Shown here one piece after another: positions 46,526-51,171 of a stretch of 64,000 bases of DNA (the stretch's first letter is position 1; the number at the start of each line of letters is the position of its first letter). The notes below the pieces were generated by a model that worked only from the letters and a program-made list of their open reading frames with translations, was not told the origin of the DNA and did not search any database. Source of the DNA: a virus. Location: IMG/VR virus record IMGVR_UViG_3300033553_000338, positions 93,881-157,880 of that record. One strand, given 5' to 3'. Both the position numbers and the translations under genes were made by a program.

Positions 46526-46789
46526 ATGAAAATAGAATCAATCTATAACCCAAAAGTTTATCATGTTTACGAGTACTGCAAAAAATGCAATCATAGAAAT
46601 GATACCCACGATATGAATTGTCTCGAATGCTGCCCTGTTAAAAATGAAAACATTCGAGAGAGTGAGGAAGAATTTTGCACTTGCATAAATCCAAGCATAT
46701 ACTTAAGCATTTCAAGAATTACGATGTGTGCAAGTTGCGATAAGCCTTATTGTGCAAAATTCATCGGAGCGAACGTAATGCAGCCATAA
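46526..46789 (+). CDS. Cys-rich hypothetical protein (first unit of cassette array)
   Basis: Stop codon lies within GCCATAAC of the first attC-like site. Confidence 0.6.
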   Translation: MKIESIYNPKVYHVYEYCKKCNHRNDTHDMNCLECCPVKNENIRESEEEFCTCINPSIYLSISRITMCASCDKPYCAKFIGANVMQP

Positions 46790-46850
46790 CGATTTGGCTA
46801 TGTGCTGAACGTAGAGTAACGGAGTTTTGCATATAGGTAGTGCTATGTGC
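46783..46850 (+). repeat. attC-like site 1 (core degenerate, GCT)
   Basis: CATAAC-gatttgg-CTATGTGC...GCATATAG-gtagt-GCTATG. Confidence 0.55.
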
Positions 46851-46879
46851 TTTTTATTAACAGATTAAATGAAATTAAG

Positions 46880-47068
46880 ATGAGATTTATAGCGACAATA
46901 AAATGGTTAGACAATGGAAATATACAAGATGATATTATTCTAAAAATTGGAGATATAGAAGAAGATGATGATGATATTTTCTTCTACTTAGATTCTGAAA
47001 GGGAAGTTGAAGAATTTAAAAAAGAAGGTGTTAATGATTGGGTTATTCTTGATGTAGTTAAAGAGTAA
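46880..47068 (+). CDS. cassette gene, acidic hypothetical protein
   Basis: 62 aa, DDDDIFFY. Confidence 0.7.
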   Translation: MRFIATIKWLDNGNIQDDIILKIGDIEEDDDDIFFYLDSEREVEEFKKEGVNDWVILDVVKE

Positions 47069-47168
47069 TTGCATACGTTCGGCAATATGAAGCGGTTGCC
47101 AGCTAAGACGCTTCAATTTAGTAATAAGCCTATCGGCAACTGTTTTATATTGCTTGTAGGCACAGTTA
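47069..47168 (+). repeat. attC-like site 2 (degenerate cores)
   Basis: GCAATATGAAGCGGTTGCC (47082-47100) / GGCAACTGTTTTATATTGC (47135-47153), then GTAGGCACAGTTA. Confidence 0.65.
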
Positions 47169-47175
47169 ATTTCAT

Positions 47176-47451
47176 ATGATTAAAAAAGGAGATAGATTAC
47201 TCGTATGGTCTTTGCAATCTTTTTCGCACGGTGGGTTTTTAAAAGGAGAACCAGCATTTGCAAGACAAAGTTCAAATGGTGATAGTGTTATTCTTTGTGT
47301 CATTAGAAATTTCACTGGTGAATATAAGATAGACGAAAGCTATGAAGTTTATATAAAGCAAGTTGAAGGTGTAACAAAGAATAACTGGAATGCTAAGAAA
47401 AGATTGAAAAAATTTAGGAAACAGATAATGCTGAATGGTGCGATTTCTTAA
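47176..47451 (+). CDS. cassette gene, hypothetical protein
   Basis: Flanked by GTAGGCACAGTTA / TAACTGTGCCTAAC. Confidence 0.75.
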   Translation: MIKKGDRLLVWSLQSFSHGGFLKGEPAFARQSSNGDSVILCVIRNFTGEYKIDESYEVYIKQVEGVTKNNWNAKKRLKKFRKQIMLNGAIS

Positions 47452-47455
47452 CTGT

Positions 47456-47607
47456 GCCTAACGGGTCAGGGCTATATGTCGTTTCAACCGGCATACCGAG
47501 GTCACGAATGGATGTTCAGGTTTAAATGACATATCAGCTAGTGTTGTGCTGCGTTCGATTCGTCATTCACATAATTATGGACAAAGCGTAGCCCTGGCCC
47601 GTTGGGT
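47456..47607 (+). repeat. attC-like site 3 (compound/nested)
   Basis: AACGGGTCAGGGCTA / TAGCCCTGGCCCGTT outer pair; GCTATATGTCGTTT / AAATGACATATCAGC inner pair with extra GTT at 47543. Confidence 0.7.
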
Positions 47608-47654
47608 TTCATTCAAAAAAAAAACGAGAATTAAAATTTTTTAAACTTTAGTAT

Positions 47655-48047
47655 ATGGAAAAAGAATATCAAACAGCTAGCTTGAATGAACTTAGTTCCC
47701 AGTTAGCAGAATTTCAAGTAAGGATGGGATTCACAGATTCAAGCATAACGCAAAGACTTATGCTAGTTCATTCCGAGGTATCAGAAGCCTTTGAGGCGTT
47801 TAGAAGAGATCGTTACGCAAGGGTTAAAAACTATATTGAGGGATACGATCACCAAGATAATTTAGAACAGAAAAAAGCCGGATTTGAGCTGCACATTAAA
47901 GACTCGTTTGAAGATGAAATCGCTGATTCGATTATAAGGCTTCTGGCTCTTTGCGGTGAAAACAACATTGACATTGAGAAGCATATACAGTTAAAAATGC
48001 GTTACAATGAAATGCGAGGCTTCAAGTATGGAGGTAAAAAATTTTAA
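47655..48047 (+). CDS. cassette gene, MazG-like NTP pyrophosphohydrolase
   Basis: LMLVHSEVSEAFEA, EDEIADSIIRLL, KMRYN..R..KYGGKKF. Confidence 0.85.
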   Translation: MEKEYQTASLNELSSQLAEFQVRMGFTDSSITQRLMLVHSEVSEAFEAFRRDRYARVKNYIEGYDHQDNLEQKKAGFELHIKDSFEDEIADSIIRLLALCGENNIDIEKHIQLKMRYNEMRGFKYGGKKF

Positions 48048-48092
48048 TGAAGTGATTTTGGCTTCGTGGCTCCTGCCAACGAAGCGTATGAA

Positions 48093-49059: not shown

Positions 49060-49168
49060 GTCTGTGGGCGGTGATTTAGCAGTAAACTTCTTTTGAAATA
49101 CAGAACCAAAAAAGAAAAAAGGGGAGGGGAAAACTTTATAGAGTACCTAATTTAATAAATATAATACA

Positions 49169-49477
49169 ATGAAAGTATTAACAGAAGGTCACAAGTACCA
49201 ATTGAGCGGATTTGAGAACGCTGAAAACACTCAAGAAATTCAATTCATTGAGAAAACGCCAATTGAAGGCACAAGTGAATTGAAAACGGTAAATGATGGA
49301 ACAACTAACGAGGAACTTCTTGAAGTCTTAATTGACCGAATGAATTACCTACAAGGAAAATTCCCTTGCCGTGAAAATGCTCTTGTAATTACCAAACTTC
49401 AAGAATCTTTGATGTGGTTAGAAAAACGAACTTCTGACCGTAAAAAGCGAAATGTAGAAGGTAAGCAACTGGCTTAA
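49169..49477 (+). CDS. tad1: cassette gene, Tad1-family anti-Thoeris/CBASS signal sponge
   Basis: H.Y..IQF..GTTNEELLEVLIDRMNYLQGKFPCRENALVITKLQESLMWLEKRTSDRKKRNVEG resembles the Tad1 C-terminal helical hairpin as I recall it. Confidence 0.85.
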   Translation: MKVLTEGHKYQLSGFENAENTQEIQFIEKTPIEGTSELKTVNDGTTNEELLEVLIDRMNYLQGKFPCRENALVITKLQESLMWLEKRTSDRKKRNVEGKQLA

Positions 49478-49554
49478 AGTTTTGTGAGCGTGGGCTTTTT
49501 CTTTTTCGATTATTAGCAGAAATGTTGATTTGAAAAACGGATTTAGCCCATTGC

Positions 49555-49840
49555 ACACAACGGTCTGGCGGTTTGTTGTCGGTTGCCGTTACAATAAACG
49601 ACTAAGTTGATGCGAATAAATAACTTAACAAATTACGCGCGATGGATAGACCTACAAAAATTACAGTAATTGAAAAGAATGATGGTTATGAAATCATTTG
49701 CATGGATGAAATGTCTGGAAGTTCAATTGGAGTTGATTTGCCTGTTAATGGATATAAAGCATTAGCCGAACATTTTAAAACCGGTGCGATGGAAATTAGT
49801 TCAGACGAGCTGGGCAACTGCAATAAACCGCATGTTAGCC
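49555..49840 (+). repeat. attC-like site 7 with ~220-nt coding loop
   Basis: ACACAAC-ggtctg-GCGGTTTGTTGTCGGTTGCC / GGCAACTGCAATAAACCGC-at-GTTAGCC. Confidence 0.75.
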
Positions 49841-50001
49841 CATCGTTGATCCCAATTGACGAGACGTTTAACAATTGGAGATTTAATTATTCAGAATTTG
49901 GAGCAGTAGATAAAGGTGAAGATTTTAAGAAAGGATTACAAACAGGAACTTGGGCTGGTTATAATTACGCACGTGTAAGGATTAAAAACAATGAGGGCTA
50001 A
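49642..50001 (+). CDS. chimeric hypothetical protein (site-7 loop + 169-bp cassette)
   Basis: First 64 codons lie in site 7; junction CAT|GTT AGC; stop in GGGCTAAC. Confidence 0.7.
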   Translation: MDRPTKITVIEKNDGYEIICMDEMSGSSIGVDLPVNGYKALAEHFKTGAMEISSDELGNCNKPHVSPSLIPIDETFNNWRFNYSEFGAVDKGEDFKKGLQTGTWAGYNYARVRIKNNEG

Positions 50002-50058
50002 CGCTGTGTGTATGGTGTCGGCTGACGATAGGAAGCTGCACTATACACGATGTTACCT
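49996..50058 (+). repeat. attC-like site 8
   Basis: GGCTAAC-gctgt-GTGTATGGTGTCGGCT / AGCTGCACTATACAC-gat-GTTACCT. Confidence 0.8.
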
Positions 50059-50084
50059 ACTGTACGGCTTATTAAAACGAAAAT

Positions 50085-50816
50085 ATGATTAGAAACACGA
50101 TACATAAAGGGGATTGCCTTGAATTGATGCCGAAACTTATTGAAGATAAAAGCATTGATATGATTTTTTGCGATTTACCATACGGAACTACAAAATGTAA
50201 ATGGGATAGTGTAATTGACTTACCTAAATTGTGGAGCGAATACGAGAGAGTAATTAAAGATAATGGCGTTATTCTATTATTTGCACAAAGCCCATTTGAT
50301 AAAGTACTTGGAGCGAGCAACCTAAATCTACTGAAGTATGAATGGATTTGGGAGAAAACTTCTGCCACAGGACATTTGAACGCTAAAAAGATGCCAATGA
50401 AAGCACACGAGAACTTGTTGGTTTTTTATAAGAACCCTCCAATTTATAACCCACAAAAAACAAGTGGGCACGAAAGAAAGGTTAGTAAAGCAGAACATAA
50501 AACCAACTGCAAGGAAAGTGAAGTGTATAATAAAGGGCAGAAGTTGACGACCTATGACAGCACCGAGAGATACCCAAGAAGCGTACAGGTTTTTGCGAGC
50601 GATAAACAGAAGGTAAAACTTCATAGCACACAAAAGCCATTATCTTTAATTGAGTATATGATAAAAACCTATACCAATGAAGGAGATTTGATACTTGACA
50701 ATGCTTGTGGAAGCGGAACTACTGGACTTGGAGCAAAAAATCTTAAACGAGATTATATAATGATGGAGCAAGACCCTGACATTTACGAAATTGCCTGTAA
50801 AAGAGTACTAACGTAG
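50085..50816 (+). CDS. cassette gene, N6-adenine/N4-cytosine DNA methyltransferase (beta class)
   Basis: GDCLELM, CDLPYG, WIWEK, HSTQKP, LDNACGSGTT. Confidence 0.92.
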   Translation: MIRNTIHKGDCLELMPKLIEDKSIDMIFCDLPYGTTKCKWDSVIDLPKLWSEYERVIKDNGVILLFAQSPFDKVLGASNLNLLKYEWIWEKTSATGHLNAKKMPMKAHENLLVFYKNPPIYNPQKTSGHERKVSKAEHKTNCKESEVYNKGQKLTTYDSTERYPRSVQVFASDKQKVKLHSTQKPLSLIEYMIKTYTNEGDLILDNACGSGTTGLGAKNLKRDYIMMEQDPDIYEIACKRVLT

Positions 50817-50822
50817 TATTGC

Positions 50823-51037
50823 AGGTAACGCTAAGTATAACAAACGAAAAATTTACGACTTATGAAAACGCATTTAATTAAAGAAGAGTACAATACAGGT
50901 GAAAGAATTACGCATTTTAAGACAAGATGTGGTAAGATTAGGCACGTAATAACGAACCTACCGAACACCAAAGACAAGGATAAGGTTACTTGCAAGATAT
51001 GTAAGTAAATTTTATGTTTTGTTATACAATGTTGGGT
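50823..51037 (+). repeat. attC-like site 9 with a complete ORF in its loop
   Basis: AGGTAAC-gctaa-GTATAACAAACGAAAAATTTAC / GTAAATTTTATGTTTTGTTATAC-aat-GTTGGGT. Confidence 0.75.
50862..51008 (+). CDS. 48-aa Zn-finger-like peptide inside site 9 (not in ORF track)
   Basis: MKTHLI...TRCG...KDKVTCKICK*. Confidence 0.55.
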   Translation: MKTHLIKEEYNTGERITHFKTRCGKIRHVITNLPNTKDKDKVTCKICK

Positions 51038-51171
51038 GCTTTTTTAATTGCATCCCAACTGTTATATGTAACAACCCTTTCTAATTCATTAGCTGATAAC
51101 AGCTTACCCACACCCGTTCGGAAAACCCATCAGGATACATTCCGATAATTTTAAACTTAACACTTAAGAAA

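Follow-up and report, generated by a model that had tools for sequence, protein, structure and literature searches.

The stretch of DNA analysed here (the window; 64,000 bp) comprises bases 93,881–157,880 of a complete virus genome of 157,880 bp from the IMG/VR collection, in which direct terminal repeats are present. Between 46.8 and 51.1 kb of the window lies an array of nine small single-gene units, separated by elements in which a hairpin is enclosed by the trinucleotides AAC and GTT. All genes of the array are on the plus strand. Its G+C content is 0.36–0.37, as compared with about 0.39–0.46 in the remainder of the window. A family could be assigned to a MazG-like pyrophosphatase (47655–48047; phrog_3301, E = 1.5e-23), to a Tad1-like protein of 102 residues (49169–49477; Pfam Acb2/Tad1 hairpin, E = 8e-6; Tad1 structures, E = 6e-13) and to an N6/N4 DNA methyltransferase (50085–50816; PF01555, E = 1.7e-29), while family searches gave no match for the remaining six cassette genes. 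Cargo of this kind presumably serves counter-defence. A first-pass annotation of the sequence had taken the region for an integron-like gene-cassette array embedded in a phage genome.

The elements were located by direct reading of 46.5–51.4 kb together with repeat and fold tools, and the approximately ten AAC-hairpin-GTT elements that had been placed at 46783–51065 were found there. Their usual order is AAC, about 5 nt, an imperfect stem, a loop of variable length, the second arm of the stem, 2–3 nt and GTT. Measured with the AAC and GTT boxes included, the sites of the window (S0–S8) range from 45 to 278 nt. Both AAC and GTT are present in seven of the nine sites, and the R/Y positions of the RYYYAAC and GTTRRRY motifs are kept loosely. 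Stop codons lie within or immediately before the AAC box at 46787, 47449, 48504 and 49999, as had been noted for several genes. Each cassette (C0–C8) is delimited below as beginning with its own site, for reasons that follow from the position of the junctions. Scores are those of a covariance model of the site family (R1), which is described further on.

The first two sites are degenerate. S0 (46788 to about 46848) has an AAC at 46788–46790, no clean GTT and a weak model match (46784–46848; 10.6 bits). It begins C0 (46790–47075; gene at 46880–47068). The stretch 46786–46883 is 81–84% identical to parts of two phage contigs (L123 and L152), the homology starting at AAC. S1 (47074–47158) has boxes reading TAC...GTA, a stem formed by 47082–47100 and 47135–47153 (84% paired) and a model match at 47070–47162 (23.8 bits, E = 9e-4). 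C1, which begins with it (47076–47461; gene at 47176–47451), has ends AGGCACAGTTA and TAACTGTGCCT that pair at 11 of 11 positions with a one-base slip at the box.

The other seven sites are well formed. S2 (47460–47603; 144 nt) has a stem of 47457–47474 with 47589–47606 (89%) and a fold energy of −25 kcal/mol. It begins C2 (47462–48098), which carries the MazG-like gene and whose ends, 47599–47612 and 48088–48101, pair at 14 of 14 positions. S3 (48097–48208; 112 nt; model match 48093–48212, 28.6 bits, E = 5e-5) includes in its loop the ATG at 48150 of an open reading frame (ORF) spanning 48150–48506, and begins C3 (48099–48506), the ends of which pair over about 20 nt (48206–48226 with 48488–48507). 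S4 (48505–48626; 122 nt) gave the top model match in the window (48501–48630; 37.7 bits, E = 2e-7). A short ORF starts at 48569 within its loop; this frame ends after 25 codons and resembles a leader ORF. The corresponding cassette, C4 (48507–49012), holds a gene at 48667–48999 and has the ends GTTATATAC and GTATATAAC. S5 (49011–49055) is a 45-nt short form with a model match of 34.6 bits, and begins the Tad1-like cassette, C5 (49013–49560).

S6 (49559–49836) is the longest site, with a stem in which GCGGTTTGTTG...GTTGCC pairs with GGCAAC...CAATAAACCGC and a partial model match at 49555. Because a stem of 11 + 6 bp joins 49568–49587 to 49815–49831, the site measures 278 nt and includes the start of an ORF, the ATG at 49642 and 64 codons of the frame 49642–50001 lying within the loop. 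The ends of its cassette, C6 (49561–50001), are GTTAGCCC at 49834 and GGGCTAAC at 49995; they pair although they lie inside an ORF. This was the most doubtful of the end pairs proposed at the outset, and the stem closing the 278-nt site upholds it. S7 (50000–50054; 55 nt; model match 49996–50058, 29.5 bits, E = 3e-5) begins the methyltransferase cassette, C7 (50002–50828), with ends GTTACCT and AGGTAAC. S8 (50827–51033; 207 nt) has a stem of 50835–50854 with 51008–51027 (80%), spacers of 5 nt and 3 nt, and a loop that includes a complete 48-codon ORF (50862–51008). It was the top score in a simple scan for AAC/GTT hairpins and was missed by the covariance model because its loop is too long. 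In C8 (50829–51058) the body after GTT is just a 29-nt hairpin, ending at the final AAC of the array (51057–51059).

The sequence that follows each GTT is the reverse complement of the sequence that precedes the next AAC. Every unit start was compared with every unit end in an 8 × 8 test that scored 11 positions beyond GTT/AAC. Pairs of ends from the same unit matched at a mean of 6.75 of 11 positions, as compared with 3.2 for non-cognate pairs, and a sum as high as that observed was attained by 2 of 40,320 permutations (p about 5e-5). The ends that flank one and the same site match poorly (0–5 of 11). This bears out the earlier statement that the ends of each unit are complementary to each other and not to those of the neighbour. 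The observation that this complementarity exceeds that of classical attC sites (10–20 nt as opposed to 7) and that the cores are looser also holds. As in classical integrons, the splitting of the box at crossover makes the two ends of a cassette complementary.

In order to define the site family, R1 was built from 20 bacterial sites in four arrays that adjoin a recombinase gene, aligned on the strand opposite their genes. The consensus of these sites is close to AAC-GGTnT-GTATATGAAAAGTTGGGG ... CCCCAATTnTTTATATAC-ATT-GTT. Compensatory changes were found in 14 of their 23 pairs, and G:T wobbles occur at fixed positions, which on the gene strand would read as A:C mismatches. When applied to the window, R1 gave eight matches at E ≤ 2.1 (six at E < 0.01 and two weaker), all on the plus strand and all inside the array; on the whole 158-kb genome there was no match outside it. 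The model also matched 83 sites in other phage contigs, with scores up to 96 bits. In these, 94.6% of cells were paired, 433 cells were changed on both sides and none of 500 shuffles was as good, although the alignment was fitted to R1, so that the pairing counts favour the model. Compensatory change was seen in 17 of 18 stem pairs of the phage sites. The AAC and GTT boxes are invariant in the 20 bacterial sites and present in 82–83 of the 83 phage sites. The consensus stem lacks a bulged base and has two or three conserved G:T wobbles on one strand only, while individual sites of the window do have bulges. On this comparative evidence, it is structure rather than sequence that appears to be under selection in the sites.

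The simple AAC/GTT scan was replaced by the covariance model since its background outside arrays was noisy. Exact inverted repeats of at least 9 nt were too common genome-wide to be informative (859 pairs), and when the surroundings of 60 Tad1-like homologues were searched without an anchor for their best inverted repeat, mostly chance or A/T-rich repeats came up.

The energies of the two strands when folded are too alike to reveal which strand folds. In phages, the genes are on the folding strand in 59 cases, opposite to it in none and mixed in eight. In bacterial records, the corresponding figures are seven on the same strand, 41 opposite and 12 mixed. As the wobble-bearing strand is sense in phages and antisense in bacteria, the conserved fold is a feature of the DNA and not of mRNA. 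Two of the records labelled as bacterial metagenome-assembled genomes (MAGs; L203 and L206) are the same size as two IMG/VR contigs (L124 and G003; 44,947 and 35,651 bp) and have the same flanks; some of the phage-oriented bacterial records are probably binned phage contigs.

The gene with which a site travels could be determined from a 21-nt core of the S5 hairpin, which occurs exactly in 66 viral contigs and in the genomes of 62 bacterial species, almost all of them Bacteroidota, and always between AAC and GTT. Among 107 usable copies, 22 pairs shared the right flank and differed in the left, none showed the reverse and 15 shared both flanks. Flank identity begins at AAC. Since the junctions number 22 at AAC and 0 at GTT, the phage cassette on the plus strand is AA/C-hairpin-GTT-gene-...AA/C (the slash marks the crossover). 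AA/C on the plus strand is G/TT on the minus strand. The first-pass annotation had placed the crossover at G/TT of the plus strand, with a cassette made up of a gene and its downstream site, and had called for a comparison of related phages for breakpoints there. The comparison of the 107 copies gave the mirror image: breaks fall at AAC and the hairpin stays with the downstream flank. The 22-to-0 asymmetry rules out, as main modes, both a gene with its downstream site and equal recombination at the two junctions. In phages, therefore, the site stands upstream of a gene carried by the folding strand, whereas bacterial arrays have the classical order of gene and then site.

The assignment of each site to the gene that follows it explains why loops contain start codons and N-terminal codons (48150, 48569–48646, 49642 and 50862–51008 in the window; sites in L088/L089 from the phage genome G004). 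The loops bear about 18–64 N-terminal codons. The N-termini encoded there often start MNKE.., and the frame continues through the GTT box into the body of the cassette.

The Tad1-like cassette provides a view of mobility. Relatives of the protein that are 97–98% identical occur in seven IMG/VR loci, which represent four distinct phage contexts: two complete genomes, G004 (84 kb) and G005 (47 kb), and the contigs G003 and L024. The DNA of the cassette is 91–93% (at most 96%) identical across these otherwise unrelated contexts, and nothing else in the surrounding 6 kb of any of the four is similar to the window. The homology starts at 49005–49010, at the AAC of the upstream site, or at 49052, at GTT, and stops at 49562–49575, just past the next AAC. 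AAC-hairpin-GTT elements frame it in all of them, and these differ in sequence. A MazG homologue (48% identical) in contig L005 is framed likewise by other sites and has ends of its own, GTTAGGCAAGA and TTTTGCCTAAC.

Arrays of the same kind are found elsewhere. G004 has a run of at least 14 sites, each about 120 nt long, whose end complementarity is perfectly chained from one to the next, and arrays are also present in G005, in G002 and in the cultured Polaribacter phage P12002L, where our scan detected at least 10 sites of the family on the early-gene strand. A second, smaller array with at least three or four sites and chained end complementarity lies at positions 1–2000 of G004 (L086 448–1275, minus strand). 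About 2 kb beyond the main array of the same phage there is an inverted short hairpin (L089 5792–5844; G004 65794–65841) that is 87.5% identical to 49010–49057 of the window. A 6-kb viral contig (L122) holds an identical cassette twice (2305–2325 and 5981–6001; site plus at least 34 nt of downstream flank) next to different upstream neighbours, a repeat that reads as a cassette duplication within an array.

In bacteria the arrays are long and start just downstream of a co-oriented gene for a tyrosine recombinase of about 375 residues. Such loci were found in Tenacibaculum (L240; at least 16 sites), Algoriphagus (L238), Natronoflexus (L236) and a Flavobacteriaceae MAG (L241). All 20 Bacteroidota genomes examined hold R1 matches (3–74 each), and at least 14 of them have their best IntI/XerA-like gene at an array end. 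The recombinases that adjoin arrays score 216–238 bits on the XerA-type model NF040815 (cut-off 220) and 193–212 bits on the integron integrase model TIGR02249 (cut-off 265). In alignment with the Vibrio integrase VchIntIA (2A3V), they have 24 residues in the stretch that contains the IntI-specific domain, as compared with 67 in the integrase. By these model scores and this alignment, the enzyme beside the arrays is classed as Xer-like, related to XerA and IntI and devoid of the IntI insertion. Two phage contigs (L103 and L163) encode a shorter version of about 250 residues (42–44% identical) directly 3′ of arrays, which in L103 has eight sites.

Further features of these loci were noted. The Natronoflexus array recombinase makes up the C-terminal half of an open frame of 675 residues (L236 10655–12682); the other bacterial versions are extended at the N-terminus by about 105 residues that are absent from the phage versions. 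A cassette of the Tenacibaculum array (L240 10036–13233) encodes a 1065-residue type IIG restriction-methyltransferase (PADLOC PDLC03610, 1154 bits), so that the bacterial pool of cassettes includes a defence gene. Contig G001 encodes three tyrosine recombinases, but these are generic XerD-like proteins, lie far from its array and lend no support to a link.

Integrons are a textbook bacterial means to stockpile and shuffle accessory genes, and are defined by IntI, whose special domain reads folded attC DNA. One alternative is accordingly that the region is an ordinary cluster of attC sites lacking integron-integrases (CALIN), that is, a set of true attC sites recombined by a canonical IntI of the host, a proposal already made for other CALINs in phages. 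The sites have the layout of attC: AAC/GTT boxes, an imperfect stem with an unpaired spacer, a loop of variable size and complementarity between a cassette's own ends. Some cores are canonical (GCCTAAC at 47456–47462). Bacteroidota are listed among the integron-bearing phyla in a review (PMC8618304), and a family member in P12002L was called as an attC by HattCI (PMC9892861). That site, P12002L_attC1, which is the same short hairpin as window 49011–49055, was however the only one of six not recombined by IntI1; HattCI alone had predicted it, whereas the Infernal step had not (PMC9892861). A tyrosine recombinase with the IntI insertion, for which a search had been recommended, was found neither in the phage nor, as a protein above the TIGR02249 cut-off, in any of the 20 site-bearing Bacteroidota genomes. 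The short insertion stretch of the recombinases beside the arrays also argues against this explanation, and a consensus with conserved G:T wobbles and no extrahelical bases may do so as well. We consider the explanation unlikely.

Another alternative would be that the hairpins are regulatory (terminators, leaders or translation starts) and that genes are shuffled by homologous recombination within a conserved hairpin, in the manner of promoter early stem-loop (PeSL) elements. The sites are intergenic, several of them take in the beginning of the following gene (start codon and first codons), in phages the strand that folds is also the mRNA strand, and the 21-nt core common to many sites could provide homology. 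In the phages, however, breakpoints lie at the AAC box, outside the common core and always on one side. The sites of the window are little alike in sequence, yet their stems covary. In bacteria, an mRNA fold would contain A:C mismatches, since the wobble-bearing strand is antisense to the genes. Regulation would not explain the complementarity of ends across whole genes, and the arrays are linked to a site-specific recombinase. We give this explanation little credence. That each unit is a tiny transposon with terminal inverted repeats (a miniature inverted-repeat transposable element or a derivative of an insertion sequence), with the hairpins as leftover target sequence, is highly improbable despite inverted ends of 7–20 nt on every unit, as these ends differ between units apart from GTT/AAC and could not be recognized by sequence, target-site duplications are absent, no transposase was found, and the hairpin moves with the downstream unit in copies that occur inside arrays only.

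We conclude that the region is a genuine cassette array but no classical integron. With good though incomplete confidence, we interpret 46.8–51.1 kb as an orphan array whose cassettes belong to a site-specific recombination system of integron-like type, common to the chromosomes of Bacteroidota and to their phages. This interpretation draws on the anatomy of the array, the covariation of the stems, membership of a site family, the position of the junctions, one cassette common to unrelated phages and the linkage of a recombinase to the site family. The initial integron-cassette interpretation thus stands as regards mobile cassettes bounded by structure-defined, attC-like hairpins. It does not stand as regards the enzyme, given an Xer-like recombinase without the IntI insertion and a family member on which IntI1 failed (PMC9892861).

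In the mechanism that we propose, each cassette would consist of one small gene after its own hairpin site. When single-stranded, the plus strand would fold so that the box ending in AAC pairs with the box starting with GTT. Inward of the boxes, the fold would have a short unpaired spacer (5 nt on one side and 2–3 nt on the other), then an imperfect stem (about 18 bp, in which G:T wobbles are conserved) and finally a loop that may have any length. The likely enzyme is the Xer-like tyrosine recombinase, which would cleave the folded strand within its AAC box, so that entire cassettes could be excised, inserted and exchanged between arrays of different phages.

Several points weigh against this interpretation. 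No tyrosine recombinase was detected by a six-frame PF00589 search of the whole phage genome, and tblastn with three array recombinases gave no match in its 157,880 bp. The array is an orphan because the complete genome lacks a recombinase of the family. Either an enzyme acts on it in trans or it documents earlier exchange; for want of a tyrosine recombinase in the phage, it could be a frozen record. The probable source of the enzyme, given that this phage has none, is the host or a co-infecting phage. The boxes of S0 and S1 are mutated. The recombinase is linked to the sites by co-location only. At the Tad1-like cassette, a different hairpin stands upstream in G005 and L024, and G003 has compensatory changes in the outer stem; these exceptions suggest some exchange or turnover on the GTT side that strict cleavage of one strand does not explain. 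The related sequences are all metagenome assemblies, except for Polaribacter phage P12002L. No event was seen: we infer that recombination takes place, as well as its chemistry, the strand that is cut, its occurrence during infection and its activity at present.

Evidence on the phage itself comes from two comparisons. A search of viral contigs with two conserved flanking proteins (53313–54758 and 45657–46127) found no close relative of the phage backbone. About 200 bp of the methyltransferase cassette (50628–50829) are 84% identical to the methylase gene of Cellulophaga phage phi13:2 (KC821633 16171–16372). Nothing else in the 10-kb region matched the deposited phage collection at the nucleotide level, and this one match hints that the host is flavobacterial.

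The system shares with classical integrons and CALINs its arrays of single-gene cassettes, structure-defined sites (AAC/GTT boxes around an imperfect stem, with a central spacer left unpaired and a loop that varies), one recombinogenic strand and stop codons inside the box. It differs in its recombinase, which lacks the IntI insertion, scores best on XerA-type models and in bacteria is co-oriented with, and upstream of, the array. In the consensus, conserved G:T wobbles seem to take the place of the extrahelical bases of classical attC sites. Box complementarity extends over 10–20 nt instead of 7. In phages, moreover, the genes are on the folding strand, the site precedes the gene, and loops can hold start codons or whole ORFs. 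Small gene modules between inverted sites, moved in trans by recombinases of the Xer family, are also known as the Xer-dependent dif modules of Acinetobacter plasmids; pdif sites, however, are a conserved 28-bp duplex, as opposed to hairpins of folded single strands whose stems covary, and are not known to occur in long one-way arrays.

The first-pass annotation called integrons normally chromosomal, plasmid or transposon elements. The idea that phages lack integron-type sites was already outdated, since small CALINs of two to four attC sites had been published in virulent phages, with IntI1 recombining five of six sites tested (Qi et al., 2023; PMC9892861). Those phages resemble the one described here in having attC-type sites, no integrase and DNA methyltransferase cargo. 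Qi et al. took the two to four sites per phage as IntI substrates, whereas we count at least 10 in P12002L and nine in the window, and they describe neither cassette sharing between phages nor an Xer-like recombinase nor a mirror orientation (PMC9892861). In the literature outside subscription journals, we found no paper on large phage arrays or on any of these three features, and searches for anti-defence cargo in attC cassettes or for integrons of Flavobacteriia, with the same coverage, returned only Qi et al. (2023) and general reviews. The PeSL modules of T4-type phages (PMC2839356; PMC4122927) are likewise small structured elements between genes, and mark off exchangeable accessory genes in plastic parts of the genome. 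Their sequences are conserved and provide homology for general recombination, whereas here the sequences differ, the junctions are fixed on one side at a 3-nt box and a dedicated recombinase is linked.

A wider proposal, which we advance tentatively and hold with rather less than even confidence, is that one recombination platform serves Bacteroidota and their phages, which keep two mirror-image pools of cassettes. Bacterial cassettes, including defence genes, would lie opposite the folding strand, and phage cassettes, including Tad1, MazG and methyltransferases, would lie on it with the gene start in the loop of the site. Virulent phages without a recombinase, such as this one, may during infection borrow the Xer-like enzyme of the host or of a co-infecting phage, and so trade counter-defence genes across unrelated lineages; the arrays would then amount to an integron for viruses. 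The enzyme might then represent a second, independent solution to the recognition of folded single-strand sites, achieved without the IntI domain.

The same cassette logic is thus found in virulent phages of a major marine and gut phylum, where it carries genes of probable counter-defence function. One cassette is common to phages of 47, 84 and 158 kb, and the recombinase family linked to the sites has no IntI domain. If confirmed, the system would provide a concrete mechanism for the rapid turnover of accessory and anti-defence genes in phages. It would also widen the definition of an integron and explain why the system is overlooked by standard tools such as IntegronFinder and IntI profiles. 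A cultured model is available in Polaribacter phage P12002L with its host.

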